A DNA stretch of 64,000 nt, taken from positions 27,612 to 91,611 of the forward strand of contig CAYOCD010000002.1 in assembly GCA_964402425.1 (NCBI GenBank). The letters run 5' to 3'. The position numbers and the translations under genes were made by a program. Each line of letters opens with the position of its first letter. Within the stretch, counting starts at the first letter, position 1. The DNA comes from an uncultured Gammaproteobacteria bacterium. GTDB lineage: Bacteria > Patescibacteriota > Patescibacteriia > UBA9934 > GWF2-40-263. Shown one piece after another: positions 5,789 to 44,945 of this stretch. The notes beneath the pieces were generated by a model. It did no database searches. It was not told the DNA's origin and saw nothing but the letters and a program-made list of their open reading frames with translations.

Positions 5789-7540
5789 ATGGAGGCAAAC
5801 GTGAATCTGTCCAATTGTTCTTTTGCGAGACATGGATTTTTTGCCATCTTGTTGTCCGCTTGTTCAGACGACACTCTGACACCAGATCCGACTCTTCACT
5901 CGACAATCGTTGATGGTCAAAAAATGGATTCAGGGTCAGAACAAGACATTACACCAGATGTAGATGTGCCAGACGCGTCTGAAGTCCAAGAGGTTGATCA
6001 GTCTGTTGATACGACGTCCGACGTTTTTGTCTGCAAAGACAATGCTTCGTGTGACACGAAAAATCCTTGCACACAAGATTGGTGTAATCTTGGGACGGGT
6101 GAGTGCCAATACACACCTCTTCCAGACAAGGTTTGTACGGACGGTGATGCGTGCACAGTGAATGATATCTGTACTTCTTCCGGCCAGTGCATTGGCGCAA
6201 AGCAGGTGGTGTGTAATGACAACAGTCCTTGCACAAAAGATTCTTGCAAACAGTTGTCTGGCTGCGATTATGAAGCCGTAGACGCGATTTGTTCGGATGG
6301 AGATGTGTGTACCAAGAATGATTCTTGTGTGGCGGGTCTCTGTCTTGGGACGAAATTTGTCTGTGATGATGGTCTTGATTGCACGGAAGATTCTTGCGAC
6401 AAGAACTTGGGTTGTTCAACAGTGAAGCTGAACAATTTACCTTGCAATGACAACTCTGCCTGCACGATCAATGATCTGTGTGATAAGGGATTTTGCAAAG
6501 GAGCGAGCATTAATTGCTCGGACGCAAATCCTTGCACGCAAGATGTGTGTGATAAGGTTTCGGGATGTTTTTCAGCACCCACCTCAAACGGTTCCAAGTG
6601 TACTGACGGAAACGCCTGCACGATCAATGACAATTGCAAGGATTCCGTATGTATCAGCGGTTCCCAAAAGAACTGTGATGACAGCAGTGTTTGTACAAAC
6701 GATTCGTGCGATGCAGCAACGGGGGAGTGTCTCCATATCGCGGTTGTTGGTGTGCACTATTGCGTTGATAACAACGCTTGCACATACGATGATACGTGCA
6801 AACTTGGTGTCTGCACGGGAAAGATTCTTCAGTGCTACGACGGTCTTGATTGCACGCAAGATTCTTGCGACAAAGGAACGGGATGTTCCTTCATGATTCA
6901 AGACAAGGCGCCTTGTAATGATGGGAACGCTTGTACAATTGGTGACACTTGTGCAAAAGATAAGTGTTTTGGAAATGTAAAAACCTGTGAAGACAACAAC
7001 GACTGTACGATCGATACGTGTGATCCGGCCGTTGGTACATGTAATTTCACAGCAAATGACGGCTATTATTGTAGTGATGTGAACGCCTGTACATCAGGTG
7101 ATGTCTGCAAAGGGACAAAATGTGTCGGTGTTACCATCATCTGCAACGATGGAAATCCTTGCACATCCGATAGTTGCAATCAAAAGACAGGCTGTGTTTT
7201 CTTGCCGACACCAAATGCGCCGTGTGATGATGCAAATCTTTGTTCGACAGACGACATCTGTCAGCAGACGGTATGCAAATCAAAACCGGTTGTGTGTGAT
7301 GATGGAAATACTTGTTCGACGGATACGTGCAATAAGTCGACAGGAAAGTGTGAATTCAAAATCTTTAATGACAGTTATTCCTGCAATGATGGGGATCTCT
7401 GTACAACCGCTGATGTGTGTCTATTCGGCGAGTGCAAGGGGTCGATTAATATGTGTAACGATAACAACCCCTGCACAATCGATGCGTGCAACCCGAAGGA
7501 TGGAAAGTGCGCAAACACAAAAGTCCCCAATTGCATCTGA
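5789..7540 (+). CDS. secreted lipoprotein built from about 19 tandem Cys-rich repeats (C-x-D-G/N-x-C-T-x-D-x-C-x3-5-G-x-C)
   Basis: N-terminus has a signal peptide with an LLSAC lipobox; the rest is repeated units such as CTDGDACTVNDICTSSGQC and CNDGNPCTSDSCNQKTGC. High Cys/Asp/Asn/Thr content and no TM segments. Confidence 0.7.
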   Translation: MEANVNLSNCSFARHGFFAILLSACSDDTLTPDPTLHSTIVDGQKMDSGSEQDITPDVDVPDASEVQEVDQSVDTTSDVFVCKDNASCDTKNPCTQDWCNLGTGECQYTPLPDKVCTDGDACTVNDICTSSGQCIGAKQVVCNDNSPCTKDSCKQLSGCDYEAVDAICSDGDVCTKNDSCVAGLCLGTKFVCDDGLDCTEDSCDKNLGCSTVKLNNLPCNDNSACTINDLCDKGFCKGASINCSDANPCTQDVCDKVSGCFSAPTSNGSKCTDGNACTINDNCKDSVCISGSQKNCDDSSVCTNDSCDAATGECLHIAVVGVHYCVDNNACTYDDTCKLGVCTGKILQCYDGLDCTQDSCDKGTGCSFMIQDKAPCNDGNACTIGDTCAKDKCFGNVKTCEDNNDCTIDTCDPAVGTCNFTANDGYYCSDVNACTSGDVCKGTKCVGVTIICNDGNPCTSDSCNQKTGCVFLPTPNAPCDDANLCSTDDICQQTVCKSKPVVCDDGNTCSTDTCNKSTGKCEFKIFNDSYSCNDGDLCTTADVCLFGECKGSINMCNDNNPCTIDACNPKDGKCANTKVPNCI

Positions 7541-7552
7541 ACGTCTTCTTTT

Positions 7553-7577
7553 CCTCTCTTCTTGAGAGGTTTTTTTA
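7553..7577 (+). terminator. rho-independent terminator
   Basis: cctctc-ttctt-gagagg hairpin followed by ttttttt after the stop at 7540. Confidence 0.5.
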
Positions 7578-7587
7578 TCTAAATATA

Positions 7588-7616
7588 TTGACAGATCGTA
7601 AAAAGATTGCTATAAA
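7588..7616 (+). promoter_or_regulatory. sigma70-like promoter for the second Cys-rich gene
   Basis: TTGACA (7588-7593), 17-nt spacer, TATAAA (7611-7616). Confidence 0.4.
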
Positions 7617-7682
7617 CAGGGGCACATCATTTTTGTGCTCAGCCCTTCAAGACACTGTTTTGAAGGTACATAAGGGGGATTC

Positions 7683-9293
7683 ATGAACGCTCTTTCCAAT
7701 CGGTTGCACGGTTCCATTATTTTTCTTGCGTTCGTTGCCGTCGCTTGTTCTCCCGAGTCTCTTGTGGAATCGACACAAGATGCTGTTGCGATGGATGAAA
7801 TGATTACAGAATCTGATGCCTTTCCTTCTGTAGACTCAGAAACATCTTTTGAAATTTCGGACACAGGATCCAGTCCAGGTGAATTTGGTTATCCCTGTGT
7901 TTCAAATGCGGATTGTAATGTTGGATATTGCACAGAAACAAGCAAAGGAAATATCTGTTCGAAAGCTTGTGTTACGGAATGTCCAGAAGATTTTGTTTGT
8001 ACAGGAGTTTCGGCGGGCGGATCCGATATCATGTTTGTCTGTCTTTCAAAGTTTGTTCGGATCTGTGATCCGTGTCACGAACACAAAGATTGCAACACAA
8101 ATGACAAGATCGGGAATCTTTGTCTGGGTGTTGGTGGAGGTGGTCGATTTTGCGGGGTGCAATGTAATCCCGCAAACGATGATAAAGATTGTCCGACCAG
8201 CTTCACGTGCAAGTTTGTGACGGATGGAAAAACGGGATTGTCTGGCAATCAATGTGTGCCATCAAAAAACGCAACATGCAGCTGCTCAACGCGTGCAATT
8301 CAACTCGCGCTTTCAACAGACTGCGAAAATAAGAATGTTTTTGGTGCTTGTTATGGACAACGCGTTTGCAAACCTGAAGGACTCACAAATTGCATAGGAC
8401 AAATTCCAGAGTCAGAAAGCTGTAATAAGCTTGATGACAACTGTGACGGGGAAATCGATAACATCGATCCGAAATCGGTTGGAGGAACCTGTCAGCAGTC
8501 CAATGAATTTGGAACATGCTTTGGTGTCATTAGTGGGTGTGACAAAGGGAATCCCATCTGTAACGCATCTGTGCCGCAACCGGAAGCTTGTAACGGTAAG
8601 GATGATGATTGTGATGGTAAAACAGATGAGGGGTTGTGCGATGACGGAAATGTTTGCACAACAGATCTCTGTAATACGGACGGCTCCTGCAAGCACATAA
8701 AAATTTCAGGAACGGCTTGTGATGACGGAAATGTTTGCACAACGTTTGAACAATGTTCATCTGGTGTTTGCATGGGTGGAACGGTGTTAAATTGTGATGA
8801 CGCCGATAGCTGCTCTGTAGATTGGTGTGATCCGTTCACAGGATGCAATCATAAACCAGCTTCAGACGTAGGATGTCTTGATGACGGCAATGTCTGTACC
8901 CAAGACGTGTGTTTGAATGGGAAATGCACACATCCGAAAGCAAAAGATGGTGGCAGCTGTCTTGATGAGGGGAACGTCTGTACAACAGATGTTTGTGACA
9001 ACGGTGAGTGTTCGCATATTTCAAATTCAAAGCCGTGTGACGACGGAAATCAATGTACGCTAAACGACTCTTGTAAAGACAAAGCATGCATCATCTCTCT
9101 GCCGAAAGTTTGCAATGATGGTAATGCCTGCACGGTTGATAGTTGCGAATCGGCAAAAGGGTGTCTCTTTAAACCAAACCCATTCTCGAGTGATGGTACG
9201 GGTGTTCCATGTCCTGACGACGGAAACGCTTGTACAGAGGATTTGTGCAAAGGCTCCATTTGCGCACATCTTCCAATTCCGGGATGTAACTAA
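7683..9293 (+). CDS. secreted Cys-rich repeat (lipo)protein, paralog of 5789..7540, with an N-terminal MopE-like CxxDDDCDG region
   Basis: Signal peptide MNALSNRLHGSIIFLAFVAVAC. The N-terminal half carries CNKLDDNCDGEIDN and CNGKDDDCDGKTDEG (putative metal-binding motif). The C-terminal half repeats CDDGNVCTTDLCNTDGSC-type units, the same repeat as the upstream gene. Confidence 0.7.
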   Translation: MNALSNRLHGSIIFLAFVAVACSPESLVESTQDAVAMDEMITESDAFPSVDSETSFEISDTGSSPGEFGYPCVSNADCNVGYCTETSKGNICSKACVTECPEDFVCTGVSAGGSDIMFVCLSKFVRICDPCHEHKDCNTNDKIGNLCLGVGGGGRFCGVQCNPANDDKDCPTSFTCKFVTDGKTGLSGNQCVPSKNATCSCSTRAIQLALSTDCENKNVFGACYGQRVCKPEGLTNCIGQIPESESCNKLDDNCDGEIDNIDPKSVGGTCQQSNEFGTCFGVISGCDKGNPICNASVPQPEACNGKDDDCDGKTDEGLCDDGNVCTTDLCNTDGSCKHIKISGTACDDGNVCTTFEQCSSGVCMGGTVLNCDDADSCSVDWCDPFTGCNHKPASDVGCLDDGNVCTQDVCLNGKCTHPKAKDGGSCLDEGNVCTTDVCDNGECSHISNSKPCDDGNQCTLNDSCKDKACIISLPKVCNDGNACTVDSCESAKGCLFKPNPFSSDGTGVPCPDDGNACTEDLCKGSICAHLPIPGCN

Positions 9294-11331: not shown

Positions 11332-14103
11332 ATGAGCAAAATTTTGAACATCCTTTTTGGAGATCCAAACAAGAAAGTGATTGCGGATCTGCGTAAAGAA
11401 GTTGAGCACATCAATAAACTTGAAGGTGAGATCAGCATGCTGTCAGATGTTGCCTTGAAGAACAAAACAATTGAATTTCGTGAAATGATCGCACAAGGCA
11501 GAAGTGTGGATAGTCTTTTGTATGAAGCATTTGCTGTTGTTCGTGAGGCGGCAAAGCGAACGTTGGGTCAACGTCATTTTGATGTTCAGCTCATGGGAGG
11601 AATTGTCATGTACCGAGGCATGATTGCGGAAATGCGTACAGGAGAAGGAAAAACATTGACATCGACTCTCGCTCTTTACGCAAATGCGCTTGAAGGAAAA
11701 GGATGTCACCTTGTGACCGTAAACGATTATCTCGCTCGTCGTGATGCGGTTTGGATGGGACAAATTTTTCATTTTCTTGGCATGTCGGTAGGAATCATTC
11801 AGCACGAAGGCGGGTTGATGTATGATCCTGAATTTAAACATCCTGAGCCGGTCGTAGTAGATGCAGAAACAATCCAAACAGAATCTTTTCATGTGCGTGA
11901 AGATTTTTTGCGACCCGTTGAAAGACGGGCTGCTTATGCCGCTGACATTACATACGGAACAAATAATCAATACGGATTCGATTATTTGCGCGACAACATG
12001 GCACCAACCATTCAAGATACGGTGATGCGTGGATTGCATTTTGCCATTGTTGATGAAATTGACTCTATTTTGATTGATGAAGCACGTACACCACTCATTA
12101 TTTCTGCGCCGGCAGAAAAATCAAATGAGTTGTATGTGCGATTTGCACAGATCACAAAAACATTGATTGAGAATGAAGATTACAACGTAGATGAAAAATT
12201 GCGCACAGCTGCGTTTACAGATGCTGGTGTTGAAAAAATCGAAAAATCTCTCGGAATCGAAAACCTTTATGCGGGAGGATCTGGAATGTTGTTTCAGAGA
12301 TTTGCAGATTCCGCCCTCAGAGCGCGCGCAAACTATCAAAAAGATGTTCATTACGTTGTGCAAAACAACGAAGTCCTTATTGTTGATGAGTTTACAGGTC
12401 GTCTCATGCAAGGCCGACGCTTCTCAGAAGGAATCCATCAAGCAATTGAAGCAAAAGAAGGTGTCACTATCCAAAACGAAAGCCAAACACTGGCCACCAT
12501 TACGTTCCAAAATTATTTCCGTATGTATACCAAGTTGTCTGGTATGACGGGAACGGCTGTTACAGAAGCGGAAGAATTTTCAAAAATTTATAAATTGGAA
12601 GTGATTGAGATCCCAACGAACCTTTCTGTTGCGCGTAAGGATTTGCCGGATCGTGTGTTCAAAAATGAACTCGGAAAATTTGAGGCGGTTATCCGTGAAA
12701 TCAAAGAGCGTCAAACAGCAGGGCAGCCCGTGCTTGTCGGAACAGCGTCGGTTGAAAAAAATGAATTGCTTTCAGAGTTGCTGACGAACGCTGGTGTAAA
12801 ACATGAAATATTGAACGCCAAAAACCATGCGCGTGAAGGAGAAATTATTGCTCAAGCCGGACGTGTTGGTGCTGTAACCGTTGCAACAAATATGGCTGGG
12901 CGTGGTGTGGACATTAAACTTGGAGGAAACCCAGGAACAAAAGAAGACGAAGCTCGCGTGCGTGAACTCGGTGGATTACACGTGCTCGGAACGGAACGTC
13001 ATGAATCTCGTCGTATTGATAACCAGTTACGTGGACGATCTGGCCGCCAAGGGGATCCTGGAACAACACAATTTTACGTTTCAATGGAAGATGATTTAAT
13101 GCGTATTTTCGGTTCAGATCGCGCAAAGGGCATCATGGATAAACTTGGGATCCCAGATGATATGCCGATTGAAAACGGCATGATCACAAGCTCAATTGAA
13201 AAAGCACAGGTACGTGTCGAAGGACACAACTTCGACATTCGTAAACATTTGCTTGAATACGATGATGTCTTGAATAAACATCGTGAAGTGATCTACGGTC
13301 GCCGACTTGAGGTTTTGGAGGCGTTTGATAAAGAACCAGAAACACTCAAAGAACGTATTCTTGATATTGTTGAGGGTGAAGTAGAGCAAATCGTTCTCTT
13401 TCATACGGGAGAAAAAGTTATTTCGCCAATACACAAGGCAGAAGGTACTGAAGATGTTGGTGCGGGGGATTGGAATACAAAAGAGATTATTGAGACAGTG
13501 AATACTATTGTCACACTTGATGCAGAATCAAAATCAAAACTTGAGTCCATTTCCATGGAACATTCACGAGATAAACAAGTGATCGCGGGAGCTCGCACAA
13601 AGATGATTGAAACAATCATGACCGTTGTGCGTGATGAATTAAGTAGTTTGCACGATTTGTTTGAGGTAAAAATGGATTTGTTTCACATTGAACGTGCAAC
13701 GCTTATTCGCAGTATTGATATGCTCTGGATTGAGCATCTTTCCGCGATGACCTCTTTGAGAACAGGAATCGGACTGCGTGGGTATGCACAACGTGACCCG
13801 CTCATTGAGTATAAGCGGGAAGGTTACGACATGTTTCAACAATTGCTCGCAGCCATTAACCAAGATGTTACATTCTCGTTCTTCAAATTCGCCCGCCACG
13901 CCGTGGACATGAAAGTTCAGGCGCAACTGAACGACTCACTCTTGAGTCGTTCAGGTGTTCAACTTGCGGGAGCAGAAACAACCTCGAATGAACATTCATC
14001 TGTTGCGAGTACATCGAGTGACGACAAAGTAGGAAGAAATGATCCGTGTCCATGTGGAAGCGGAAAGAAGTACAAGAAGTGTCATCTTATTGGAGGTGAA
14101 TAA
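11332..14103 (+). CDS. secA: preprotein translocase ATPase SecA
   Basis: ORF 11230..14103. SecA motifs: MRTGEGKTLT (Walker A), IVDEIDSILIDEARTPLIIS (DEAD-like), TNMAGRGVDIKLGG, and the C-terminal zinc finger CPCGSGKKYKKCH. The family N-terminus MSKILNILFGDPNKK starts at ATG 11332. Confidence 0.9.
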   Translation: MSKILNILFGDPNKKVIADLRKEVEHINKLEGEISMLSDVALKNKTIEFREMIAQGRSVDSLLYEAFAVVREAAKRTLGQRHFDVQLMGGIVMYRGMIAEMRTGEGKTLTSTLALYANALEGKGCHLVTVNDYLARRDAVWMGQIFHFLGMSVGIIQHEGGLMYDPEFKHPEPVVVDAETIQTESFHVREDFLRPVERRAAYAADITYGTNNQYGFDYLRDNMAPTIQDTVMRGLHFAIVDEIDSILIDEARTPLIISAPAEKSNELYVRFAQITKTLIENEDYNVDEKLRTAAFTDAGVEKIEKSLGIENLYAGGSGMLFQRFADSALRARANYQKDVHYVVQNNEVLIVDEFTGRLMQGRRFSEGIHQAIEAKEGVTIQNESQTLATITFQNYFRMYTKLSGMTGTAVTEAEEFSKIYKLEVIEIPTNLSVARKDLPDRVFKNELGKFEAVIREIKERQTAGQPVLVGTASVEKNELLSELLTNAGVKHEILNAKNHAREGEIIAQAGRVGAVTVATNMAGRGVDIKLGGNPGTKEDEARVRELGGLHVLGTERHESRRIDNQLRGRSGRQGDPGTTQFYVSMEDDLMRIFGSDRAKGIMDKLGIPDDMPIENGMITSSIEKAQVRVEGHNFDIRKHLLEYDDVLNKHREVIYGRRLEVLEAFDKEPETLKERILDIVEGEVEQIVLFHTGEKVISPIHKAEGTEDVGAGDWNTKEIIETVNTIVTLDAESKSKLESISMEHSRDKQVIAGARTKMIETIMTVVRDELSSLHDLFEVKMDLFHIERATLIRSIDMLWIEHLSAMTSLRTGIGLRGYAQRDPLIEYKREGYDMFQQLLAAINQDVTFSFFKFARHAVDMKVQAQLNDSLLSRSGVQLAGAETTSNEHSSVASTSSDDKVGRNDPCPCGSGKKYKKCHLIGGE

Positions 14104-14173
14104 AAGGCCAATGAATCAATAAAATCAATGCGTTCAGTGATTGCACAAGGACGGATTTGATTAGAAAATTTAC

Positions 14174-14205
14174 AACGACCTCATTTTGAGGTCGTTGTTT
14201 TGTAA
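14174..14205 (+). terminator. rho-independent terminator after secA (repeat copy T1)
   Basis: aacgacctc-atttt-gaggtcgtt hairpin followed by gttttgtaa. Confidence 0.6.
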
Positions 14206-14338
14206 TGATCCCTACCCACAAAGTTGAGTAAGATAGAATATTGAAAAGAACGTTAAACAAATACTCAAATAGCTGTTATGATAAATATAGATAAGCCTGG
14301 GAAAGTGCTTTGTTTTTCCAAATATTTTATAAAAAACT

Positions 14339-14983
14339 ATGACTCGTTCTGAACTCATTGCAAAAAAAATAAATATACAAATTCAAGAATGGAGCCAGAA
14401 CAATGAAAAATTGGTTGTGGCTATTGATGGATATGCAGGGTCTGGAAAAACGACCATTGCTGATTTTATTGGTGTACAAAATTCAAACGTCCTTGTTGTT
14501 CATCTTGATGATTTCATTAAACACTGGAAAACACGAAAGTTGTTGATGAAACATGCTGTAAACAAATCGAACGTGTTTGAATATGAGTGGTATCGATATT
14601 TGGAAGTAGAAAAATTGATTCGAAATTTTAAACGAAGAAAACAAGGAGTTATAAAATTAAAGACATACAATTTCGACAAAAATAATTTTGATCCAAAACG
14701 CGCTTTTGATCTTTCAAAAAAGATTCTCGTTATTGATGGCGTATTTCTCATGCACCCTAAACACAATGTTAGTACATTGTGTAATAAAACAATTTATCTT
14801 GATGTTGAATTTGAAACGGCTGATAAAAAAAGAATCGCTCGTGAAAAAAAGCGATGGGGAGAGCATTACTTACCAGAAGACCACCCAGATAATTGGATTC
14901 AATATTTTAAAATTGCTTACAGAGCGTATATAAATAAATATAAACCAGAAAAGCATGCGGATCTTGTGTTTAGGATTGATTAG
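14339..14983 (+). CDS. P-loop kinase, uridine kinase/PRK-like family
   Basis: Walker A VVAIDGYAGSGKTTIADFIG, then VHLDDF and ILVIDGVFLM (Walker B-like hydrophobic strand plus Asp). 214 aa. Confidence 0.5.
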   Translation: MTRSELIAKKINIQIQEWSQNNEKLVVAIDGYAGSGKTTIADFIGVQNSNVLVVHLDDFIKHWKTRKLLMKHAVNKSNVFEYEWYRYLEVEKLIRNFKRRKQGVIKLKTYNFDKNNFDPKRAFDLSKKILVIDGVFLMHPKHNVSTLCNKTIYLDVEFETADKKRIAREKKRWGEHYLPEDHPDNWIQYFKIAYRAYINKYKPEKHADLVFRID

Positions 14984-15026
14984 AATTAATCTTATTTTTA
15001 AGATAGTATGAAGATTTTTTTAATAA

Positions 15027-15102
15027 CTTCAAGAAGTGGCCATGGAGCGTAAAGAAATATCAAACAACGATCTCATCCGGGGTCGTTGTTTTGTAACGAT
15101 TC
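15027..15102. repeat. intergenic repeat unit (R2 plus terminator-like T1')
   Basis: cttcaagaagtggccatggagcgtaaa is identical at 18921-18947. The downstream acaacgatctcatccggggtcgttgttttgtaacgattc is about 85% identical to 14172-14211 and keeps the hairpin through a compensating G-U pair. Confidence 0.55.
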
Positions 15103-15244
15103 TTATTCGCACAAGAATCGTTCATGTAAGACATGTGATCAGTTGACAAAATCATTAAAATCTATCAAGTCCAATTTGGATAATTTCTACTCAACGGCTG
15201 GATGAAATTATTTTCACTGTTATTTACAATTTAGGAGATTTAAC

Positions 15245-15922
15245 ATGTATACAGGAAAATGCTCAATCATTATCCCAGCACACAATGAAGAGGCGACGAT
15301 CAGAAACTGTTGCCTGCGATTTGCTGATCACGTCAGTGTTTCTGAAGTAATTGTGGTCGCAAATTCTTGCAGCGATATGACATATCAAGAAGCTCTTGCT
15401 GGTAAAGCCGTGGTAATTCAAACGAACTACAAGGGGAAAGGCAGAGCAATTAAAATAGGTCTTATACAAGCAAAAGAAGAAATCGTTTTGCTTTTTGATG
15501 GTGATATTAAGAATCCATCTGCTATTTTCACAGAGATACTACTCTCTGGATTGACCTCGAAGGAAGTTGGTTTGGTAAAAGGTGTATTTGATCGAAGTGA
15601 ACAACCCGGTCCTGTCACTGACATGTTAGTGAAACCAGTGCTTGAGATTGCCAATCATCCGGCCAAAGTGATTTCGCAGCCATTGTCCGGTATGGTAGCT
15701 GTTAGACGTGATTTCGCTAGGAGTATCGATATGCCAGATGACTTTGGAGTCGAATTAAGTATGTTGCTTGCGGCATATGAAAAAAAATTGCAGGTTGTAG
15801 AGGTATCACTGCCAAAAATAGAGCACAGACAAAGACCCTGGAGTCACTATATGGCAATGGCTGTCGAAGTCGCTGAAACATTTAAGCGTTTTCAAATAAT
15901 CAATACACACGAGGGGTTATAA
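15245..15922 (+). CDS. glycosyltransferase family 2
   Basis: N-terminus CSIIIPAHNEEATI and a DGD motif (LLFDGDIKN), 225 aa. A strong SD AGGAG lies 8 nt upstream. Confidence 0.7.
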   Translation: MYTGKCSIIIPAHNEEATIRNCCLRFADHVSVSEVIVVANSCSDMTYQEALAGKAVVIQTNYKGKGRAIKIGLIQAKEEIVLLFDGDIKNPSAIFTEILLSGLTSKEVGLVKGVFDRSEQPGPVTDMLVKPVLEIANHPAKVISQPLSGMVAVRRDFARSIDMPDDFGVELSMLLAAYEKKLQVVEVSLPKIEHRQRPWSHYMAMAVEVAETFKRFQIINTHEGL

Positions 15923-15923
15923 C

Positions 15924-17210
15924 ATGTTACGAATTCAAATGATTTGCGGTGAATTAGCCCCGTATCGTTGCCATGGCGGTTTGGGTATTGCAGCAGAAAA
16001 TTTATGTGCACAACTCGTCTCGCTTGGTGCTAGTACTGAAGTATTTTTCCCATTGTTGGAAGGGAGTAAATCCGTTCACAGCAATACGTCTGGATTAAAT
16101 CCTTTTCCGATTGATATGCCATTCGATATGGCCAATCAACTTGATAGTGAATTAGCTCCGGGCTTGACTCATTTTTGCCAAAAGGCATTAAGATCAATGG
16201 ATCGAAATTCAAACACATGTTTTGTTGCTCACGACAATGAGGCTGCGGTAAGTGTAGTTTTTGGTAAGGAGCAGGGTAGACAATCTATTTTTTGGATGCA
16301 TAGCCTTTATGATCATCCCGTAAGATTAGATTTCCCAAAATCAGTTCAACGATTGATGTCATCTGATTCGCTTCTAGCTTCTGCAATCAATGACTCATGT
16401 CTGTTTGTTACGAGCGGTGGTGTCTTGAAAGATGCGTTGTCTATCATCTGGCCTCAAAGGTTACGTGATACACAACGTGCGATTCAAGAAGCGCACGGAG
16501 CCGGCAAAATCGTCATTGTGGAATCGTTGGGGTTGCTAAAAGAGAGGTGTTTGCCAACTCAGAATTTGAATATAGCAAGAAAATACGGATTGACTGAAAA
16601 ACCGTTCGTTCTTTTTCCTTCGCGACCTGTCTTGAGTAAAGGAATTGGTTTTATTCAAACAGTTGCCAAAGTAATGCGAGATGAAAATCTCATGTTCGTC
16701 GCTGTTGGAAAACCATCGAATGAAATAAGAAGAATGTGTCCAAACATATCGTGGATTCCTTGGTTGGAGAAACACGAGCTGTTTGCGCTTATGGGTCAAG
16801 CATCAGTCATAGTGCACCCTAGCCTTACTGAAGGATATGGCTTGGCTGCTGCTGAATCAGCCAAATATAATAATAAGGTTCTTTGTCACCCAGTTGGTGG
16901 TTTGCATATTTTAACAGAACGAAATTTGGTAGACGAAGTTTCTATTACCAACGAAGAACTCAGTGGTTTGTATACACTTTGGAGTGACTTATTAACCACG
17001 CAAAACAATTCCGAAGCAGTTCGTGTGTGGCACGAACAATCCGCGAGTTTTAAAAAGCTTACGGACAAATGGATAGAAGCTCTTTCTAGAAAAGTACTTG
17101 AATGTGGTGGCTCGTCAGGAACAGATCAACAATACGGAGATGCGTCATGGAACAGTATAACTTGGGGCGAAACATTATTGACGGCAATCAACAAACTCCA
17201 ACCTTATTGA
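15924..17210 (+). CDS. GT-B fold glycosyltransferase (GT4/GT5-like, retaining)
   Basis: N-terminal GGLG motif (RCHGGLGIAAEN) and C-terminal E-x7-E motif (HPSLTEGYGLAAAES). The start is 1 nt after the GT2 stop. Confidence 0.65.
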   Translation: MLRIQMICGELAPYRCHGGLGIAAENLCAQLVSLGASTEVFFPLLEGSKSVHSNTSGLNPFPIDMPFDMANQLDSELAPGLTHFCQKALRSMDRNSNTCFVAHDNEAAVSVVFGKEQGRQSIFWMHSLYDHPVRLDFPKSVQRLMSSDSLLASAINDSCLFVTSGGVLKDALSIIWPQRLRDTQRAIQEAHGAGKIVIVESLGLLKERCLPTQNLNIARKYGLTEKPFVLFPSRPVLSKGIGFIQTVAKVMRDENLMFVAVGKPSNEIRRMCPNISWIPWLEKHELFALMGQASVIVHPSLTEGYGLAAAESAKYNNKVLCHPVGGLHILTERNLVDEVSITNEELSGLYTLWSDLLTTQNNSEAVRVWHEQSASFKKLTDKWIEALSRKVLECGGSSGTDQQYGDASWNSITWGETLLTAINKLQPY

Positions 17211-17854
17211 TACTCTCACCACATCCCGATGACCTTGAATTGTCGTGTGGACTACTTTGTCATCAAGCAATGCTGCTTGGTTGGCGTGTTCTCGAGATAG
17301 TTTTAACAGATGGAGCGGCTGGCGGTATCGATTTAAGCTTATTTCATACTGATAAAATTCGTGAACTTCGAGTTGCAGAAGCGCGAAGGGGAGGTATGTT
17401 ACTCGGTGTCGAGGAAATTGAATTTTGGGGGTATGCAGATTCCAATTTGAATCAGGATCTGCAGTCAGTAATTTTATTGTTACAAGACAGGCTTAAATTC
17501 CTCTCTCCAACAGTCTTGGTTTTTCCTAGCATAAACGACACTCATCCTGATCATTTCGCTGCATACACTATTGTCATGTCAGTCCTCGAACAGTACAAAA
17601 AAGAGCTAGTAACTCTTCAATACTGTTTCTGGGGTAAGGATGATAATCAAAATATTATTCTTTCACATACATCTGGTGTGCAGGCGAAGGAGAGTGCAAT
17701 CAAAGAACATAAAACACAACCTATAGATAAGTATCTCAGTCGGTTGAATGAGGGAGAGAAAAAAATGAATGATTTCGAACGATACTTTAGTCCTAATCCT
17801 AACAAAACTATTTCGGTTTTGATAGACTATGGTTTCCGTATCAATCTCATCTAG
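17147..17854 (+). CDS. PIG-L/LmbE family N-acetylglucosaminyl deacetylase
   Basis: ORF 17102..17854. Carries the LLILSPHPDDLELSCG (PHPDDE) motif and a second metal motif NDTHPDHFAAY (HxDH). The start is placed at ATG 17147 by family N-terminal spacing, overlapping the upstream gene by 64 nt; 17102 is the alternative. Confidence 0.65.
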   Translation: MEQYNLGRNIIDGNQQTPTLLILSPHPDDLELSCGLLCHQAMLLGWRVLEIVLTDGAAGGIDLSLFHTDKIRELRVAEARRGGMLLGVEEIEFWGYADSNLNQDLQSVILLLQDRLKFLSPTVLVFPSINDTHPDHFAAYTIVMSVLEQYKKELVTLQYCFWGKDDNQNIILSHTSGVQAKESAIKEHKTQPIDKYLSRLNEGEKKMNDFERYFSPNPNKTISVLIDYGFRINLI

Positions 17855-17864
17855 AAACTTACGA

Positions 17865-17893
17865 GGTGTAACAACGAAAGTTACACCTTTTTT
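17865..17893 (+). terminator. rho-independent terminator between the convergent deacetylase and kinase genes
   Basis: ggtgtaac-aacgaaa-gttacacc hairpin plus ttttttatttt. Confidence 0.55.
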
Positions 17894-18786
17894 ATTTTCA
17901 ATCTTTGATGAAACAATCGTTTAGCGTCTTTTTTTGTTATAAATTTTGAGCCTTTATAGGCTAATGCTAATAATTTTATTGCCATGTCTTGATAATAAAT
18001 CTGCGCACGTTCATATATGTCTGAATCTGAAGTTGTTTGATAAAACGATAACACAGAACGAACAAAATTTTCACCATAAGAAAATAATGCCGCAAAATCT
18101 CTGGCTGGATCACTTATTATTGAATCGCTAAAGTCAATGATTCCAAGGCTGTTGCCAGTCTTTTTGTTCACAAAGACATTGTCGCTTGTTAAATCACCGT
18201 GTATGAGTGTTGGTTTAAAATCTTTTAACAGAAGTTTACGTCTTTTTAAGAAATTGACGACAGATATTTTTTCTCTTGATGTGATAAAAGTATCTATGAA
18301 TTTAACATCTGCAAAAATTTCCTTATTTTGTTTAGATACACTCGTATTTCGTACATGAGCTTTTAAAGCCAGCTCAATGGGTGTGTTGTGAATTTGAGAT
18401 AAAAATAGCGAAATGTTTTTTGCAAATTTTTTCTTTTCTGATGGGTTGAATTTTTTATACCTCGCTTCGCTCATGGGTGAGCCTGTTACAACCGAATAGA
18501 TAGCAGTTTTTGATTTTGCATCCTTATAAATTGGCTTAGGGATATCCGCATCTATAATGTTTTGCAAATAGGATAGTAAATTATAATCGACCAGCATCCG
18601 TTTTCTCGCATCATTATTTTTTGGTATTCGAGTGACGTATTTATTGTCCAGTAATAAAATATCATGATCCCAACCGGAGGAAATATGTTTTGATTTTTTC
18701 CACTCTAGATTTGGGAATATTTCATGAATATTCTCATTTAAGTTTTTTTGCATAAGAGAAACAGATATTACACGATTAACATACAA
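17881..18786 (-). CDS. aminoglycoside phosphotransferase (APH)/choline-kinase-like phosphotransferase
   Basis: Catalytic loop LIHGDLTSDNVFV and GIIDFSDSIISDPARDFAALF match the APH(3')-like HGDxxxxN and IDxxD...DLA motifs. The gene is very A+T-rich, and the start may be the internal Met at 18753. Confidence 0.6.
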   Translation of the reverse strand: MYVNRVISVSLMQKNLNENIHEIFPNLEWKKSKHISSGWDHDILLLDNKYVTRIPKNNDARKRMLVDYNLLSYLQNIIDADIPKPIYKDAKSKTAIYSVVTGSPMSEARYKKFNPSEKKKFAKNISLFLSQIHNTPIELALKAHVRNTSVSKQNKEIFADVKFIDTFITSREKISVVNFLKRRKLLLKDFKPTLIHGDLTSDNVFVNKKTGNSLGIIDFSDSIISDPARDFAALFSYGENFVRSVLSFYQTTSDSDIYERAQIYYQDMAIKLLALAYKGSKFITKKDAKRLFHQRLKIKKV

Positions 18787-18920
18787 TATTTTATATTATA
18801 CAACTTATTTGATTCATCGTATGCGATGAAAATAGGACTTGATTTGGATAGTTCTCGAATTTATCCATTAAGATAACATTAAACTTGTTTTGACCGAATA
18901 TCTTCTGGTAAAGTCGGCCA

Positions 18921-18990
18921 CTTCAAGAAGTGGCCATGGAGCGTAAATGAATTTAAACAAGGGTTTCAGTCTTGAGATCGTGTTTTATTT
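18921..18990. repeat. second copy of the intergenic repeat unit (R2 plus a degenerate T element)
   Basis: cttcaagaagtggccatggagcgtaaa is identical to 15027-15053. It is preceded by ggcca, which completes a perfect palindrome ggccacttcaagaagtggcc. The downstream part is a diverged version of the terminator-like element. Confidence 0.5.
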
Positions 18991-18999
18991 GGAATCGGC

Positions 19000-19482
19000 A
19001 TGCTACCATGGTTGCCTATGAATGTAGATTCGCTTAAGGCTGTTTATTTTGTTGCGGTAAAAGTATTTCTCGAAGATGGAAATGGGAATTTTTTGATAAC
19101 CAAAGATCGATTCGGAGATTGGGATATTCCTGGCGGACGCTTAAGAGAGGGAGACTTCGAAGTTCCGCTTGAGCAGATCGCTGAAAGAAAAATGAAAGAA
19201 GAGTTGGGTGAATCTGTTCAGTACCGTCTCGAAGAACCTGTTGTTATGATGCGTCATGAGCGGGATGAGATTCTTTTGACGGGGAAGCGAGAGAAGCGAA
19301 GAATTTTCGCCGTTGGTTATTGCGCACATTATTTCGGAGGCGATATTTCCCTTGGAAAGAACCATGAAAAATTTGAATGGGTTCCGATTATCACGTTTGA
19401 ACCAGAGAAGTATTTTACGGGAGGGTGGCTAAAAGGAGTAAAAGAATACCAACAAATTCGTTTAATTGCAGGTAGTCTCTAG
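19000..19482 (+). CDS. NUDIX hydrolase
   Basis: Nudix box PGGRLREGDFEVPLEQIAERKMKEELGE (GGx4Ex7 RExxEExGE-like). Confidence 0.6.
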   Translation: MLPWLPMNVDSLKAVYFVAVKVFLEDGNGNFLITKDRFGDWDIPGGRLREGDFEVPLEQIAERKMKEELGESVQYRLEEPVVMMRHERDEILLTGKREKRRIFAVGYCAHYFGGDISLGKNHEKFEWVPIITFEPEKYFTGGWLKGVKEYQQIRLIAGSL

Positions 19483-19580
19483 GGCTACTCGTCGAATAAA
19501 TAAACAATTTTGTCATAGCGGGGTTGTTTTCGTATCACGGTTCGTTGTGTATGATGTGTGCACTCACTCATATTTTATTT

Positions 19581-19745
19581 ATGATTTGTCCAAAATCCGG
19601 TTGTGGCTACGAAATGTCTGTTCAAAGTAGGGATGCATCTACCGATGCATATGGAGCACCAATTGAGCGTGTAGAGTATATGTGTTCGTTTGATTACACG
19701 CGTGTTGTTGTAGAAATCCCAAAAGATGCTGAGGCATCCTCATAA
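19581..19745 (+). CDS. small Cys-containing hypothetical protein
   Basis: ORF 19524..19745; the likely start is MICPKSGCGYEM, and a CxxxC...C pattern is present. Weak support. Confidence 0.25.
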   Translation: MICPKSGCGYEMSVQSRDASTDAYGAPIERVEYMCSFDYTRVVVEIPKDAEASS

Positions 19746-23886: not shown

Positions 23887-23929
23887 AAAATCCCGAGTTT
23901 CAAACAAGAAACTCGGGATTTTTTCTTTT
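23887..23929 (+). terminator. rho-independent terminator after secDF
   Basis: 15-bp stem aaaatcccgagtttc/gaaactcgggatttt, then tttcttttg. Confidence 0.65.
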
Positions 23930-24020
23930 GTGTTTTTTTGTTATACTGTTTGTGATTCCTTTTCGTTCAATTCCTCTTCTGTTTGTTTCAGAAGAGGTGA
24001 TCCTTCTTGATTTTTCGTCT

Positions 24021-25658
24021 ATGCTTCCCATGCTTGCGATTCAGATCATTGATCAATCCGCGCAATCTTCTCTTCCGTTGATTTCATCGTCTTTTTTTAA
24101 TCAACCGATTGACGTCATTTTTTTTAATCTACTGCTTTGGTTTGGGTGGATTCCAATCTTTTTTACGTTACTTTGGGGATTTTCAGAGTTGTGGCTTGCG
24201 GAGCGTCAAGCAGTTTTTGCGGCAAAACAAAAATACATTTTTCTTGCTGTTGATGTTCCTTCCATGACAGAGCAAACACCAAAAGCTTTGGAAAATTTGT
24301 TTTCTGTTTTATATACAGCAAAATCAAATCCAACGTTTAAGGAAAAATGGTTTGATGGAAAATTCATGCCAACGTTCTCTTTTGAAATTGTTTCAGAAGA
24401 AGGATACATGCAATTTATTATTCGGACACAAGAAAAATTTAGAGATGTGCTTGAGGCGGGTATTTATGCACAATATCCTGATGCAGAAATGAATGAGGTG
24501 CAAGATTATGCATCAAAAGTTCCTGCGCTTTACCCAAATGAAACATATGACATGTGGGGCGGTGAGTTTACGTTTGATAAAGAATCTTTTTTCCCCATTC
24601 GTACATACGTAGATTTTGAAGATCAAATGACTGGAGAAATTAAAGACCCGCTCGGATATACATTGGAACAAATGTCTAAAATGAGACCTGGAGAACATTT
24701 TTGGTTTCAGATGATTTTACAGCCATCAAACAATGATTGGAAAAAGGCTGGAGTTGCATACGTAAATAAAACATTTGGTGTTGAAGAGAAAGCGGCAAAA
24801 AAAGGAGAATTTTCTGCTGCGGCAACAACCGTATTTAAACTTCCATTTGAGCTCATAGAACATGCAACAGCTATTGATCTTGCGCCTATTTTTGGGATGG
24901 GCCCAGCAGAAAAAAAAGCGGAAGATCCATGGAAAGCGTTTAAGCTTGGTCCCGCACAACAAGATGAAGCAAAAGCGATCATGCGTAAAACAATCAAGGT
25001 TGGACACGGAGTAAAAATTCGCATTGTCTATTGTGCAAAAAAAGCTGCATACAAAAAGGGGGACCGTGTCACCATGATCAAAGGAATTCTGAATCAATAT
25101 TCACACCTGAATTTGAATTCCTTTAAGATGAACGCACCGTCCGTTCCAAAGGATGATTACTTCTGGCAAAAATGGGATTATGAAAAAAAACAAACTGTTC
25201 TCATGAAAGCTTATCAGGCCAGAAGTTGGTCTGTTGGAGCAAACCCAATTTTCTTGAATGCAGAAGAACTCGCAACGCTTTGGCACTTTCCAACCATTAG
25301 CACAAAGGCTCCGCTTATTAAAAAAGCAGAAGCGCGCCGCGCGGAACCTCCTGTTGGACTTCCTACAACATTTTTGGAAAATACGTTACCAGGCGTGGGG
25401 GACAACGAATTTCCTTCCACACTTCCTGGTTCCGTACCAATGGAACATCATGAATCTGCGGAGTCTCGTGGAGCGGGTACGTATGTTTCCGCAAAAGAAC
25501 CACTTCCAGAATCATTGCCACACGTGAAAGCCCCAACAGAAAGAGGCCGTGAAGAAACAGGGGATGTTCTCCTGTCAAAAAACCGTTTCATGCAAGACAC
25601 ATCTCCTGCAGATGCCTCTGATGAAGATTTATTTACCCCACCTGACTTGCCAGTTTAA
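24021..25658 (+). CDS. hypothetical membrane protein: N-terminal TM helices, large soluble domain, disordered acidic/Pro-rich tail
   Basis: ORF 23928..25658, but its first 90 nt overlap the secF terminator, so the start is placed at ATG 24021 (MLPMLAIQ). Hydrophobic helices IDVIFFNLLLWFGWIPIFFTLLWGF. No known domain. It ends 18 nt before the next ORF. Confidence 0.45.
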   Translation: MLPMLAIQIIDQSAQSSLPLISSSFFNQPIDVIFFNLLLWFGWIPIFFTLLWGFSELWLAERQAVFAAKQKYIFLAVDVPSMTEQTPKALENLFSVLYTAKSNPTFKEKWFDGKFMPTFSFEIVSEEGYMQFIIRTQEKFRDVLEAGIYAQYPDAEMNEVQDYASKVPALYPNETYDMWGGEFTFDKESFFPIRTYVDFEDQMTGEIKDPLGYTLEQMSKMRPGEHFWFQMILQPSNNDWKKAGVAYVNKTFGVEEKAAKKGEFSAAATTVFKLPFELIEHATAIDLAPIFGMGPAEKKAEDPWKAFKLGPAQQDEAKAIMRKTIKVGHGVKIRIVYCAKKAAYKKGDRVTMIKGILNQYSHLNLNSFKMNAPSVPKDDYFWQKWDYEKKQTVLMKAYQARSWSVGANPIFLNAEELATLWHFPTISTKAPLIKKAEARRAEPPVGLPTTFLENTLPGVGDNEFPSTLPGSVPMEHHESAESRGAGTYVSAKEPLPESLPHVKAPTERGREETGDVLLSKNRFMQDTSPADASDEDLFTPPDLPV

Positions 25659-25676
25659 CCAAGGATTTTTTGCCCT

Positions 25677-33936: not shown

Positions 33937-34671
33937 ATGTTATCGATTGTCATTCCGACAAAAAATGAAGAAGAACACCTCCCAAAATTATTAGAATCCA
34001 TCAAATTACAAACCGTTCAACCTCAAGAAATTATCGTTGCAGATGCGCATTCAACAGATAAAACAAGAGAAATTGCAAAATCATTTGGAGCAAAAGTGAT
34101 TGATGGCGGTATGCCATCGGTCGGAAGAAATCTTGGAGCAAAACATGTTGCGACAGATTTGATTTTGTTTTTGGATGCAGATGTTGAATTACGCGATCCA
34201 ACATTTTTGGAAAAATCAATTAGAGAATTTCAAGATCGTTGCCTCGGTCTTGCAACATGCGATGTTTTTCCATTGTCAGATGCGTATATCGATCACTTTC
34301 TCCACAAAGCGTACAATAAATATGTTCGCGCCTGGGGATCTCTTTTTCCACACGCACCTGGGTTTTGCATGCTTGTAAGAAGGGAGGGGCACAATAAAAT
34401 TCGTGGTTTTGATGAATCAATTGTGTTTTGTGAAGATCATGATTATGCACGACGATTTAAGCGTGTTGGCAGATTTGGTTTTTTAAGATCTACAAAAATT
34501 CCGGTGAGCATCAGGCGTCTTGATCGTGATGGTCGTTTGAAAATAGCAATCAAATACTTACTTGCAGAATTACATCTCGCATTTGTTGGACCTATCAGAT
34601 CAAATACGTTCAACTACACATTTGGGCACAGTAAAAAGTTAAAATCAAAGACTGAAAAAAACAAAAGGTAA
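33937..34671 (+). CDS. glycosyltransferase family 2
   Basis: LSIVIPTKNEEEHL, DAHSTD, FLDADVEL (DxD). Confidence 0.7.
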   Translation: MLSIVIPTKNEEEHLPKLLESIKLQTVQPQEIIVADAHSTDKTREIAKSFGAKVIDGGMPSVGRNLGAKHVATDLILFLDADVELRDPTFLEKSIREFQDRCLGLATCDVFPLSDAYIDHFLHKAYNKYVRAWGSLFPHAPGFCMLVRREGHNKIRGFDESIVFCEDHDYARRFKRVGRFGFLRSTKIPVSIRRLDRDGRLKIAIKYLLAELHLAFVGPIRSNTFNYTFGHSKKLKSKTEKNKR

Positions 34672-34673
34672 CT

Positions 34674-35240
34674 ATGCTCCTTTTTCCGCTCGTTATTCAA
34701 CATCGTCATGTGCATTTGTCGAAGATTGACCTTCGACAATTATTTGGTGATGAAAAATCGTTAGAGATTGAATTTGAATTAGAGCAGAAAGGACAATTTC
34801 TCTACAAAGAAACCGTGAATGTGGAGGGTAAAACAGGCGTGATTGAATCGGTGCGTGTTTTGGGTCCGTGTCGTAGCAAAACACAGGTCGAACTTTCTGT
34901 CACTGATGCATTCGCTATTGGCTTAAAGGCGCCGGCTCGCTTGTCTGGAGATACGCTTCGGGCCGCATCATGTAAACTCGTTGGTCCAGAAGGTTCTGTT
35001 CGAGCTGTGGCTTCTGTTATTGTTCCAGTTCGTCATTTGCACTGTTCAGATCGGGTTGCAAAAAAACTTCACTTGAAAAACCATCGCGTGGTAACATTAA
35101 GGCACGCAGAGAAGCCAGACGTTGTTTTAACACATGTGTTTGTTCGTGTTCATCCAACGTTTGCTCCTGAATTACATCTTACATCTGATGAAGCTGCACA
35201 TTACTGGCTTCATTCCGGTGATTTATTTGAAGTATGTTGA
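34674..35240 (+). CDS. PduL-like phosphate acyltransferase family protein (PF06130-like)
   Basis: Duplicated RHxH-type motifs (IQHRHVHLS and VPVRHLHCS), characteristic of the two-repeat PduL fold. It starts 3 nt after the GT2 gene and overlaps the next gene. Confidence 0.45.
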   Translation: MLLFPLVIQHRHVHLSKIDLRQLFGDEKSLEIEFELEQKGQFLYKETVNVEGKTGVIESVRVLGPCRSKTQVELSVTDAFAIGLKAPARLSGDTLRAASCKLVGPEGSVRAVASVIVPVRHLHCSDRVAKKLHLKNHRVVTLRHAEKPDVVLTHVFVRVHPTFAPELHLTSDEAAHYWLHSGDLFEVC

Positions 35241-43860: not shown

Positions 43861-44945
43861 GCGATCGCGATATTCTTCTTATTACACCAGATTATCTTCC
43901 GAGCCGTGGTGGGGTAGCACGTTATTTAGGGTTGTTTGCGGAATATTTTACAAAGCGGATTCGAGTGATTGCTTCACCAACAAAAAACAAGTCAACAGTT
44001 CTTGCATCATACGTTCTTGAACGTAAACCTTTGCTCTCAAAATACCTTTGGCCACGTTGGCTTACATCCGTTTTTCTTTTGATGAAAGAATCGCGATCGT
44101 ATCGATGTGTTGTGACAAGCCATGTTATTCCATTTGGTACAGCCGCAATGATCGCAAAACGATTCACAAAAAAACCCTATCTTGTGATTACGCACGGAAT
44201 GGATGTGCGTCTCGCGTTGCGATCAAAAAAAACACTCACAGCTCACATACTCTCAAATGCTCATCTTGTGATCGCAAATTCAAATGCCCTCGCACAAGAA
44301 TTGCAGAAAGAATTTGGAATCAAAAACATTCTCACAATGTATCCAGCCATTGATCCATCTTTTTTTGTGAATAAACCAAAAGTTCCCTCAGATATATTTC
44401 GATTACTGAGCGTGAGTCGATTGGTGGATCGTAAAGGGCATGAACGTGTTTTACACGCTCTCGCTCTTTTGAAAGTAAATGGTTCGCTTTCCGCATTTTG
44501 TTATGTGATTGTTGGAGATGGTCCAACGCGCACGTCGCTTGAAATGCTCGTTCATGAACTTAATTTAGACACGCACGTTTTCTTTAAAGGGGATGTTTCT
44601 GATCAAGAGTTGCAATTGTGTTATGTGGATACGGATGTCTTTATTTTGCCTGTAAAAGATGATCCGATCGATAAAGAAGGATTCGGTATGGTATATCTTG
44701 AGGCGGCGGGATATGGTATTCCATCGATTGCGACACGCATGAGTGGGGTAGATGAAGCAGTGCTCGATCAACAAACAGGTCTTCTTGTTTCTGATGGAAA
44801 TATTGAAGAATTAGTACGTGCCATTTTGATTCTTGCAAAGGATTCTGTTTTACGTGATCAGCTTGGGGCACAGGCACAAATGCGTGTGTTAACAGAATTT
44901 ACGCCTGACGCTCAGTTTTCTAAGCTAGAACCGTATCTTGTATGA
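43857..44945 (+). CDS. glycosyltransferase family 4
   Basis: GT-B C-terminal motif EGFGMVYLEAAGYGIPSIAT (E-x7-E); ATGA overlap with the flippase. Confidence 0.75.
   Translation: MSDRDILLITPDYLPSRGGVARYLGLFAEYFTKRIRVIASPTKNKSTVLASYVLERKPLLSKYLWPRWLTSVFLLMKESRSYRCVVTSHVIPFGTAAMIAKRFTKKPYLVITHGMDVRLALRSKKTLTAHILSNAHLVIANSNALAQELQKEFGIKNILTMYPAIDPSFFVNKPKVPSDIFRLLSVSRLVDRKGHERVLHALALLKVNGSLSAFCYVIVGDGPTRTSLEMLVHELNLDTHVFFKGDVSDQELQLCYVDTDVFILPVKDDPIDKEGFGMVYLEAAGYGIPSIATRMSGVDEAVLDQQTGLLVSDGNIEELVRAILILAKDSVLRDQLGAQAQMRVLTEFTPDAQFSKLEPYLV

Follow-up and report, generated by a model that had tools for sequence, protein, structure and literature searches.

Genes and repeats downstream of secA

The window analysed here is a stretch of 64 kb (64,000 nt) of contig CAYOCD010000002.1, in which the interval between secA (11338–14103, plus strand, identified by its Pfam domains) and secD (20890) holds a series of inserted genes. 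The main subject is a cassette of four of these genes, coding for two glycosyltransferases (GT-A and GT-B), a LmbE-family deacetylase and a convergent phosphotransferase of the APH family. All coordinates are window positions unless they are prefixed with L, which marks other contigs. From secA to secD the order is a PRK/uridine-kinase-like P-loop kinase, GT-A, GT-B, LmbE, the convergent APH gene, a NUDIX hydrolase, a small Cys-rich open reading frame (ORF), a cupin and a HAD hydrolase. The reading frames and domain assignments of a first-pass annotation of the same DNA (uridine-kinase-like, GT2, GT-B, LmbE and APH) were borne out by Pfam and NCBIfam matches.

The SecA protein is 90% identical to that of the Candidatus Uhrbacteria metagenome-assembled genome GCA_026395055.1 (P0066), with an alignment that ends at KKCH, and its farther relatives belong to Patescibacteria. 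We treat the window as part of a Candidatus Uhrbacteria (Patescibacteria) genome. The mechanical secA ORF begins with a TTG at 11230 and overlaps the hibernation-factor gene; relatives begin at the equivalent of the ATG at 11338 (MSKILNILFGDPN), which is likely the true start. Four other public contigs were rejected as strain variants of the window, as all of them are 100% identical to it.

A Uhrbacteria relative represented by the contig L169, and by L170 from another sample, has the order murB, HPF, secA, a 162-aa ORF, a 55-aa ORF, cupin, HAD, secD, secF, DUF8128 and TrwB. By blastn of both contigs against the window and by the junction sequences, homology at the DNA level breaks at 14084, within the last secA codons, and restarts at 19575, where the small ORF begins. 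The strain-variable segment is therefore 14085 to about 19570; it holds three inserts, the NUDIX gene among them, next to the 3' end of secA. The first-pass annotation had closed the segment at 18990, before the NUDIX gene, and this limit has to be given up: the 162-aa ORF of the relative has no similarity to the window NUDIX. The region after secA is acquired accessory DNA, as had been proposed, since a relative with a 90% identical SecA lacks 14085 to about 19570. Among more distant relatives, secD either follows directly after secA (L007, L009, L059) or is separated from it by 0.6–7 kb of unrelated genes, so that the secA–secD interval is a general hotspot for variable genes.

Between the inserts lie displaced copies of the 3' end of secA together with its terminator. 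In the relative, secA ends with AAGAAGTGTCACGGAGCATAA (KKYKKCHGA and stop) and is followed by a strong terminator hairpin, and the 3' end of the window secA, which is the insertion site, codes for the tail KKYKKCH-LIGGE in comparison with KKYKKCH-GA of the relative. An exact 28-mer, ACTTCAAGAAGTGGCCATGGAGCGTAAA, occurs at 15026 and 18920, where no such match is expected by chance, and has no third copy in the 64 kb. It aligns to the true secA end of the relative and, with one nucleotide removed, reads FKKCHGA and stop; both positions, which belong to the copies named B and C below, carry the identical frameshifted 28-mer. A terminator hairpin repeat is found at 14172–14214 and 15064–15105 (hairpins 14172–14198 and 15064–15089).

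Copy A (14172–14214, plus strand) is the terminator hairpin behind the functional end of secA, some 68 nt downstream of its stop codon, with a stem of 12 bp (−19.8 kcal/mol, z = −5.85). Both copy B and the secA terminator of the relative can be aligned to it, and a weak, degenerate stretch similar to the 28-mer (R) lies at about 14133–14165. Copy B (15026–15105, plus strand) is a displaced pseudo-3' end of secA (R at 15026–15053, TTCAAGAAGTG[G]CCATGGAGCGTAA) with its hairpin at 15064–15089. Copy C (18920–18995, plus strand) is a second displaced pseudo-3' end, in which the same 28 nt are followed by a decayed terminator just upstream of the NUDIX gene. From the 28-mer and the hairpin repeats, copies A and B bracket the PRK-like gene and copies B and C bracket the four-gene cassette. 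The conserved intergenic element that had been noticed at both sides of the unit is thereby confirmed and refined to three copies, and the window has no other dispersed repeats in non-coding sequence. A perfect 10-bp hairpin (AACGATTCTT...AAGAATCGTT) was additionally found at 15096–15123, just past the terminator of copy B, and the pseudo-secA end of copy C is embedded in a palindrome, GGCCACTTCAAGAAGTGGCC, at 18912–18931. Inspected by eye, the copies A to C have neither the R'' (RYYYAAC) and R' (GTTRRRY) boxes nor the arm symmetry of an integron attC or dif-like site, and this reading of the 28-mer was rejected; intI was not found in the window ORF scans.

The complete array consists of secA with the altered tail HLIGGE, terminator A, the PRK-like gene, pseudo-secA end and terminator B, the four-gene cassette, pseudo-secA end and decayed terminator C, the NUDIX gene and the conserved flank. 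These are three separately acquired inserts parted by displaced secA 3' ends and terminator. The first one holds the PRK/uridine-kinase-like gene (14339–14983, plus strand; Pfam: PF00485, 1.6e-14), which lies outside the conserved cassette, is a singleton 90% cluster and reaches 46.9 bits against the uridine kinase equivalog with a cut-off of 180. The third one holds the NUDIX hydrolase (19018–19482, plus strand; Pfam: PF00293, 9.8e-8), which is not conserved in the close relative. The right-hand boundary is the small Cys-rich ORF (MICPKSGCGYEM..., 19582–19745, plus strand), from which point the synteny of small ORF, cupin, HAD, secD and secF is conserved. The PRK-like and NUDIX genes are neighbours of the cassette through their insertion history and stand outside its pathway.

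The first-pass annotation had described the segment as more A+T-rich than its flanks. Across the 64 kb, GC in 1-kb windows is lowest at 14251–15250 (31.3%, z = −3.7) and 17751–18750 (32.2%, z = −3.3), corresponding to the PRK gene (32.2% GC) and the APH gene (31.8% GC), and for these two regions the description stands. It does not stand for the genes in between: the GC values of GT2, GT4 and LmbE are 41.4, 41.6 and 39.7% compared with a window mean of 41.5%, and their tetranucleotide deviation is about zero, which counts against the deviant composition claimed for this core. The segment after secA thus has two A+T-rich patches and is no uniform island. The GC of the APH gene is 5–13 points under that of its three cassette partners in seven of the eight lineages with the cassette, third codon positions included, and this offset holds despite protein divergence of 35–57% between lineages; the only exception is L087, a genome with 57% GC. 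As the offset recurs in this way, the low GC is a conserved trait of the gene and no sign of a recent separate arrival.

A portable cassette in Patescibacteria

The GT2 (GT-A), GT4 (GT-B) and LmbE genes with the convergent APH gene recur at unrelated loci in no fewer than seven further lineages of Patescibacteria, always with this order and orientation. The cassette adjoins DUF559 and a type IV secretion system pilin in L085/86, a C39 peptidase in L167/168, MazG and DUF218 in two ENA contigs, and KsgA and LeuRS in L165. In L087-89 it lies between MutH/Dcm on one side and PGM/PMM on the other, and in L164 between OatA-like genes on one side and inositol-1-phosphate synthase on the other; L096/97 and L166 also carry the cassette. 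The identities of GT2, GT4, LmbE and APH to the window proteins fall together, from 80, 60, 56 and 57% in the closer lineages to 60, 43, 43 and 35% in L087. The four genes are strictly co-inherited and co-diverge, and form a portable unit which is limited to Patescibacteria.

That GT-B, LmbE and an APH-type kinase form a linked unit, as the first-pass annotation had stated, holds in all cassette lineages: APH is attached to the cassette in every one of them, with linkage, orientation and spacing kept. The same annotation had counted two kinases in one cassette. The PRK-like gene is absent from every other cassette locus examined and is a separate insert, so that one kinase too many had been counted for the pathway.

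Lineage-specific direct repeats flank the cassette in four lineages, the window counted. The repeat measures 28 nt at 100% identity in the window, 31 nt at 81% in L087, where within 21 kb it is found at the two flanks only, 63–88 nt at 99–100% in L096/097, and 91 nt at 87% in L166. In the latter three the repeats sit just 3' of the stop codon of the neighbouring gene, in the terminator region. A universal flanking repeat was considered and rejected, as L164 and L165 are without any. The L087 repeat has a tRNA-like look which was not confirmed, and a tRNA target or known RNA element was rejected, as within the window no tRNA and no Rfam match was found.

The array is comparable to tandem genomic islands of the integrase type, which occupy the 3' ends of tRNA and tmRNA genes: the inserts adjoin the secA 3' end, a displaced copy of this end with the terminator bounds each of them, and the insert nearest to secA has the most deviant composition. 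It differs from them in that the target is a protein-coding gene, that the same cassette bears other repeats in other genomes, and that no integrase was detected among the scanned window ORFs (some ORFs were not scanned or are without Pfam match). The inserts may enter by a RecA-mediated single crossover of circularised, repeat-bearing DNA from competence uptake.

Other origins were also considered. A plasmid origin was rejected, as GT-A finds its best plasmid match in an actinobacterial GpgS with 29% identity, and so was a phage origin, as PHROGs matches are generic only and viral contigs contain no relative of the GT-B family. No cassette protein has a PADLOC match, and a defence system was rejected on this basis. 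We found no description of this gene combination in the literature.

The nearest relatives of GT-B outside Patescibacteria (L090-L095 and L098-L157, 32–38% identity, mostly from soil metagenomes) adjoin a GT4-GT2 fusion protein, without LmbE or APH. Some of these soil loci add a S6PP-type HAD phosphatase, a D-Glu cyclase-like protein, PRTase_3 proteins and IucA/IucC. They hint at small-molecule glycoside synthesis by another uncharacterised cluster of glycoside type.

The four enzymes

GT-A (15245–15922, plus strand; Pfam: PF00535, 1.1e-10) is a soluble, GpgS-like (GT81-like) protein of 225 aa. The first-pass annotation had called it a GT2 and had not recognised it as a GpgS-like, soluble GT-A. 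GpgS is its best specific match both in NCBIfam (NF010496, 2.5e-31) and in the PDB (MtGpgS, 5e-16). Residues 6–213 align to the M. tuberculosis enzyme (4y6n) with the DxD (D-G-D), GxVT (G-P-V-T), QPLSG and HRxRP (H-R-Q-R-P) motifs. The DxD motif, the His258 loop and the acceptor contacts Val186/Thr187 of GpgS are all present; the residue roles, including the acceptor-contacting V186/T187, were taken from PMC2581804.

This similarity relates the cassette to the glycosyl-glycerate pathways, those of glucosylglycerate (GG), glucosylglucosylglycerate (GGG) and mannosylglucosylglycerate (MGG) as well as the initiation of methylglucose lipopolysaccharides (MGLP), in the motifs of GT-A and in the second glycosyltransferase next to it. 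A second glycosyltransferase acts after the first one in the GGG and MGG pathways. The cassette differs in the lack of a GpgP-type phosphatase and in the presence of a deacetylase and a kinase, and we know of no glycosyl-glycerate pathway that has both.

GT-B (15924–17210, plus strand; Glyco_trans_1_4, 1.7e-8; 428 aa) is a retaining-type glycosyltransferase with a GT5-like N-terminal GGL motif and an invariant E-x7-E motif (E303 and E311). It belongs to a very small and isolated family that is sharply apart from mainstream GT4: an exhaustive phmmer search of 1.84 billion representatives gave 71 matches at E<=1e-3 and 27 at E<=1e-10. The AlphaFold2 (AF2) model of the protein has a pLDDT of 89.5. 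Its Foldseek neighbours are glycogen/starch synthases (5.5e-17), followed by MshA (2.6e-14), GlgM, BshA (6e-13) and OtsA, and all of them are retaining enzymes. MshA and BshA, whose pathways the first-pass annotation had brought in for comparison, rank behind glycogen/starch synthases.

The LmbE gene (17147–17854, plus strand) overlaps the GT-B stop by about 50–64 nt and codes for a zinc de-N-acetylase of the PIG-L/LmbE family (Pfam: PF02585, 1.1e-22; 81.3 bits with a cut-off of 28.2). The metal and catalytic residues H26, P27, D28, D29, D131, H133, D135 and H136 (HPDD and DxHxDH motifs) are invariant in eight orthologues, in line with the metal-binding His and Asp residues reported earlier. 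Compared with the PDB, the family profile ranks the archaeal diacetylchitobiose deacetylase (Dac) first (1e-18), followed by TT1542 (3e-11), BshB1 (9e-10) and MshB (4e-4); the profile is closer to Dac than to BshB or MshB, with which the first-pass annotation had compared the gene. BshB1 is the top NCBIfam match, yet with 43 bits compared with a cut-off of 182.5 (TIGR04001).

The convergent APH gene (17881–18753, minus strand; Pfam: PF01636, 8.6e-16) codes for a small-molecule kinase of the APH(2'') clade. Against the PDB, the family profile matches APH(2'')-Id/IVa over the full length (1.2e-38) and Mph with 1e-17, and the catalytic HGD and IDFSD motifs are conserved. The cassette kinase shares with APH(2'') phosphotransferases the full-length profile match and the HGD and DFxD motifs. 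It differs in its low single-sequence identity and in being embedded in a conserved, biosynthetic-looking cassette: the single-sequence match to APH(2'') is weak (E of about 1e-17, 64 bits with cut-offs of about 600–625), below the allele- and family-level thresholds. The organisms that carry the cassette are not known to encounter clinical aminoglycosides.

Two neighbouring genes of the kinase may be mentioned here. In L164, a myo-inositol-1-phosphate synthase (Pfam: PF01658) precedes APH by 4 nt in the same orientation (10642–12583 of L164), and is the sole context gene that hints at an acceptor. A PGM/PMM gene has the equivalent position upstream of APH in L087.

Elsewhere in the window, glycosylation genes code for a GT2, for a Wzx-like flippase with a GT4 and a GT2, and for a WecG/TagA-type transferase (33937–35240, 42412–46494 and 56986–57789); they are of the conventional envelope type, unlike the cassette. 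A PduL-type phosphate acyltransferase was found at 34674–35240. Two adjoining large Cys-rich proteins of 583 and 536 aa (5789–9293) are the source of a family of 26-nt repeats at 6674–8743. Dictyostelium-type CTDC repeats (Pfam: PF00526) were matched in the first of them and in both Uhrbacteria-relative orthologues (the second window protein was not scanned). Directly 3' of secDF, DUF8128 is followed by a TrwB/VirD4-like coupling ATPase (23928–28178), an arrangement that is kept in many Patescibacteria relatives; the ATPase gene has a 93-nt tandem duplication at 27931–28116 (82% identity).

Proposed function and alternatives

No segment resembling a transmembrane helix was detected in any of the four cassette proteins (no hydrophobic segment over KD19 = 1.5), and by their motifs all four look catalytically intact. 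Two glycosyltransferases of small-molecule type, coupled to a de-N-acetylase and to a constant kinase from a clade acting on amino-sugar hydroxyls, together with the solubility of all four proteins, indicate a cytoplasmic small-molecule pathway. In the scheme that we propose, the GpgS-like GT-A would glycosylate a small anionic acceptor, of the glycerate/3-phosphoglycerate type or possibly an inositol phosphate. The retaining-type GT-B would next add an N-acetylhexosamine, and the translationally overlapping LmbE would then take off the acetyl group and expose the amine. The APH(2'')-type kinase would phosphorylate a sugar hydroxyl of the amino-glycoside-like product, either as a biosynthesis or immunity step or for trapping. 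Glycerate or 3-phosphoglycerate is favoured by the GpgS-like acceptor residues of GT-A, and inositol phosphate by the inositol-1-phosphate synthase that shares an operon with APH in L164. Our best guess from the sequences is that the cassette would make a glucosamine-containing small glycoside stepwise, which would then be phosphorylated by APH; the proposal is tentative, and we infer the identities of donor and acceptor, the order of the steps and the role of the kinase. A glucosamine-containing small molecule with phosphorylation had already been suggested by the first-pass annotation and stays the best, if tentative, guess.

We put the overall confidence in this reading of the locus at about 0.55, a figure that combines high confidence in its structure (about 0.85) with lower confidence in the biochemistry (about 0.35). 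The higher value covers four points: the insertion array is composite, the relative has an empty site, the four genes form a portable unit, and the PRK and NUDIX genes are unrelated to the cassette. Going further, the module might be self-contained and mobile and make a phosphorylated pseudo-oligosaccharide that contains glucosamine, either a zwitterionic solute or a compound similar to aminoglycosides, with glycerate or inositol phosphate as its base and with APH in a native biosynthetic or immunity role, and it might move by recombination at duplicated terminator/3'-end sequences without an integrase of its own. This extended picture is doubtful.

Several observations weigh against the scheme and the mobility proposed here. 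The nearest structures to GT-B are glycogen synthases, which transfer glucosyl groups. GT-A reaches 108.9 bits with NF010496, where the cut-off of the GpgS equivalog is 262; it is about 100 residues shorter than GpgS, is without the N- and C-terminal extensions and has a Pro where GpgS has Arg185. The closest match of LmbE is a catabolic enzyme, chitobiose deacetylase. In the contexts examined, the cassette is accompanied by no phosphatase, transporter or regulator, and the loci of L164 and L165, which are A+T-rich and tightly spaced, show no flanking repeats. Furthermore, no scanned window ORF matched a recombinase, integrase or transposase family (six ORFs of at least 110 aa are without Pfam match, and nine were not scanned, five of them at 39–42 kb).

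The alternative that survives best, while being unlikely, is that there is no common pathway, and that an ordinary APH resistance gene against aminoglycosides or macrolides lies beside three envelope glycosylation genes. The similarity to APH(2''), the JGI label of the kinase as aminoglycoside 2''-phosphotransferase, and the convergent orientation, own promoter region and different base composition of the gene are all consistent with it. However, linkage, orientation and spacing of APH are constant, it diverges in step with the other three genes, to as little as 35% identity, and the conserved compositional offset bears no mark of a recent arrival. The other three enzymes also lack the TM or signal features of envelope glycosylation.

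An antibiotic cassette of the aminoglycoside or pseudo-oligosaccharide type, in which GT-B and LmbE act like NeoM/NeoL or KanM1/KanN and APH provides self-resistance, is slightly less probable still. The pairing of a GT-B N-acetylglucosamine (GlcNAc) transferase with a LmbE deacetylase is the core of the mycothiol, bacillithiol and 2-deoxystreptamine pathways, the kinase belongs firmly to the APH(2'') clade by its full-length profile match, and the cassette is accessory and mobile. The cassette measures only about 3.9 kb, though, and no cassette context has the 2-deoxy-scyllo-inosose synthase, aminotransferase or dehydrogenase that would be expected nearby in a 2-deoxystreptamine cluster. Moreover, GT-A resembles the compatible-solute enzyme GpgS and no aminoglycoside glycosyltransferase.

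We give about the same low odds to an amino-sugar salvage route, in which a Dac-like deacetylase and a sugar kinase process GlcNAc or chitobiose scavenged from host walls and the glycosyltransferases re-use the sugars. Patescibacteria scavenge, and the APH fold includes anomeric sugar kinases; the first rank of diacetylchitobiose deacetylase in the LmbE profile and the PGM/PMM gene adjoining APH in L087 would fit as well. Against this, the two glycosyltransferases are of biosynthetic type with intact donor-binding motifs and would have no catabolic role, no glycosidase, deaminase or transporter is linked, and the kinase profile fits APH(2'') and Mph, not sugar-1-kinases, in both NCBIfam and the PDB.

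Least probable of the four is a low-molecular-weight thiol pathway similar to mycothiol or bacillithiol, or a GlcN-inositol pathway, in which GT-B would correspond to MshA/BshA and LmbE to MshB/BshB. The cassette has in common with both thiol systems the retaining GT-B beside a LmbE-family deacetylase, with overlapping genes and an implied addition of GlcNAc followed by de-N-acetylation; MshA and BshA are structural neighbours of GT-B, BshB1 is the top NCBIfam match of LmbE, and inositol-1-phosphate synthase is co-directional with APH in L164, in one lineage only. It differs in having no cysteine ligase, in the additional GpgS-like GT-A and the obligatory APH, both of which such a pathway leaves without explanation, and in a deacetylase nearer to Dac than to BshB or MshB. 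The equivalog cut-offs are missed widely (16 bits compared with 462.5 for MshA, TIGR03449, besides BshB1 above), and there is no MshC-, MshD- or BshC-like gene, that is no ligase or acetyltransferase of mycothiol and no linked bacillithiol ligase, either in the window region or around any other copy of the cassette. The thiol-type or 2-deoxystreptamine-type membership that the first-pass annotation had considered thus found no support in cut-offs or in cassette contexts. A membrane-bound, polyprenyl-phosphate or glycosylphosphatidylinositol (GPI)-like reading (PIG-A/PIG-L/DPM1) was rejected except as a minor possibility, as matches to DPMS and AglJ are far weaker than those to GpgS and no hydrophobic segment exceeds the KD19 value given above.

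Apart from the proposed function, the locus is a clean and datable case of a protein-coding housekeeping gene whose 3' end received inserts repeatedly, with fossil copies of this end left behind. The genomes of Patescibacteria, or the Candidate Phyla Radiation (CPR), are minimal, and these bacteria are believed to produce hardly any metabolites themselves. If the proposed function is true, the cassette would be a rare case of accessory small-molecule biosynthesis in this group, which could bear on host interaction or stress tolerance. It would also give a function to a GT-B family of a few dozen representatives in 1.84 billion sequences, and a natural, non-clinical context to the APH(2'') kinase clade.

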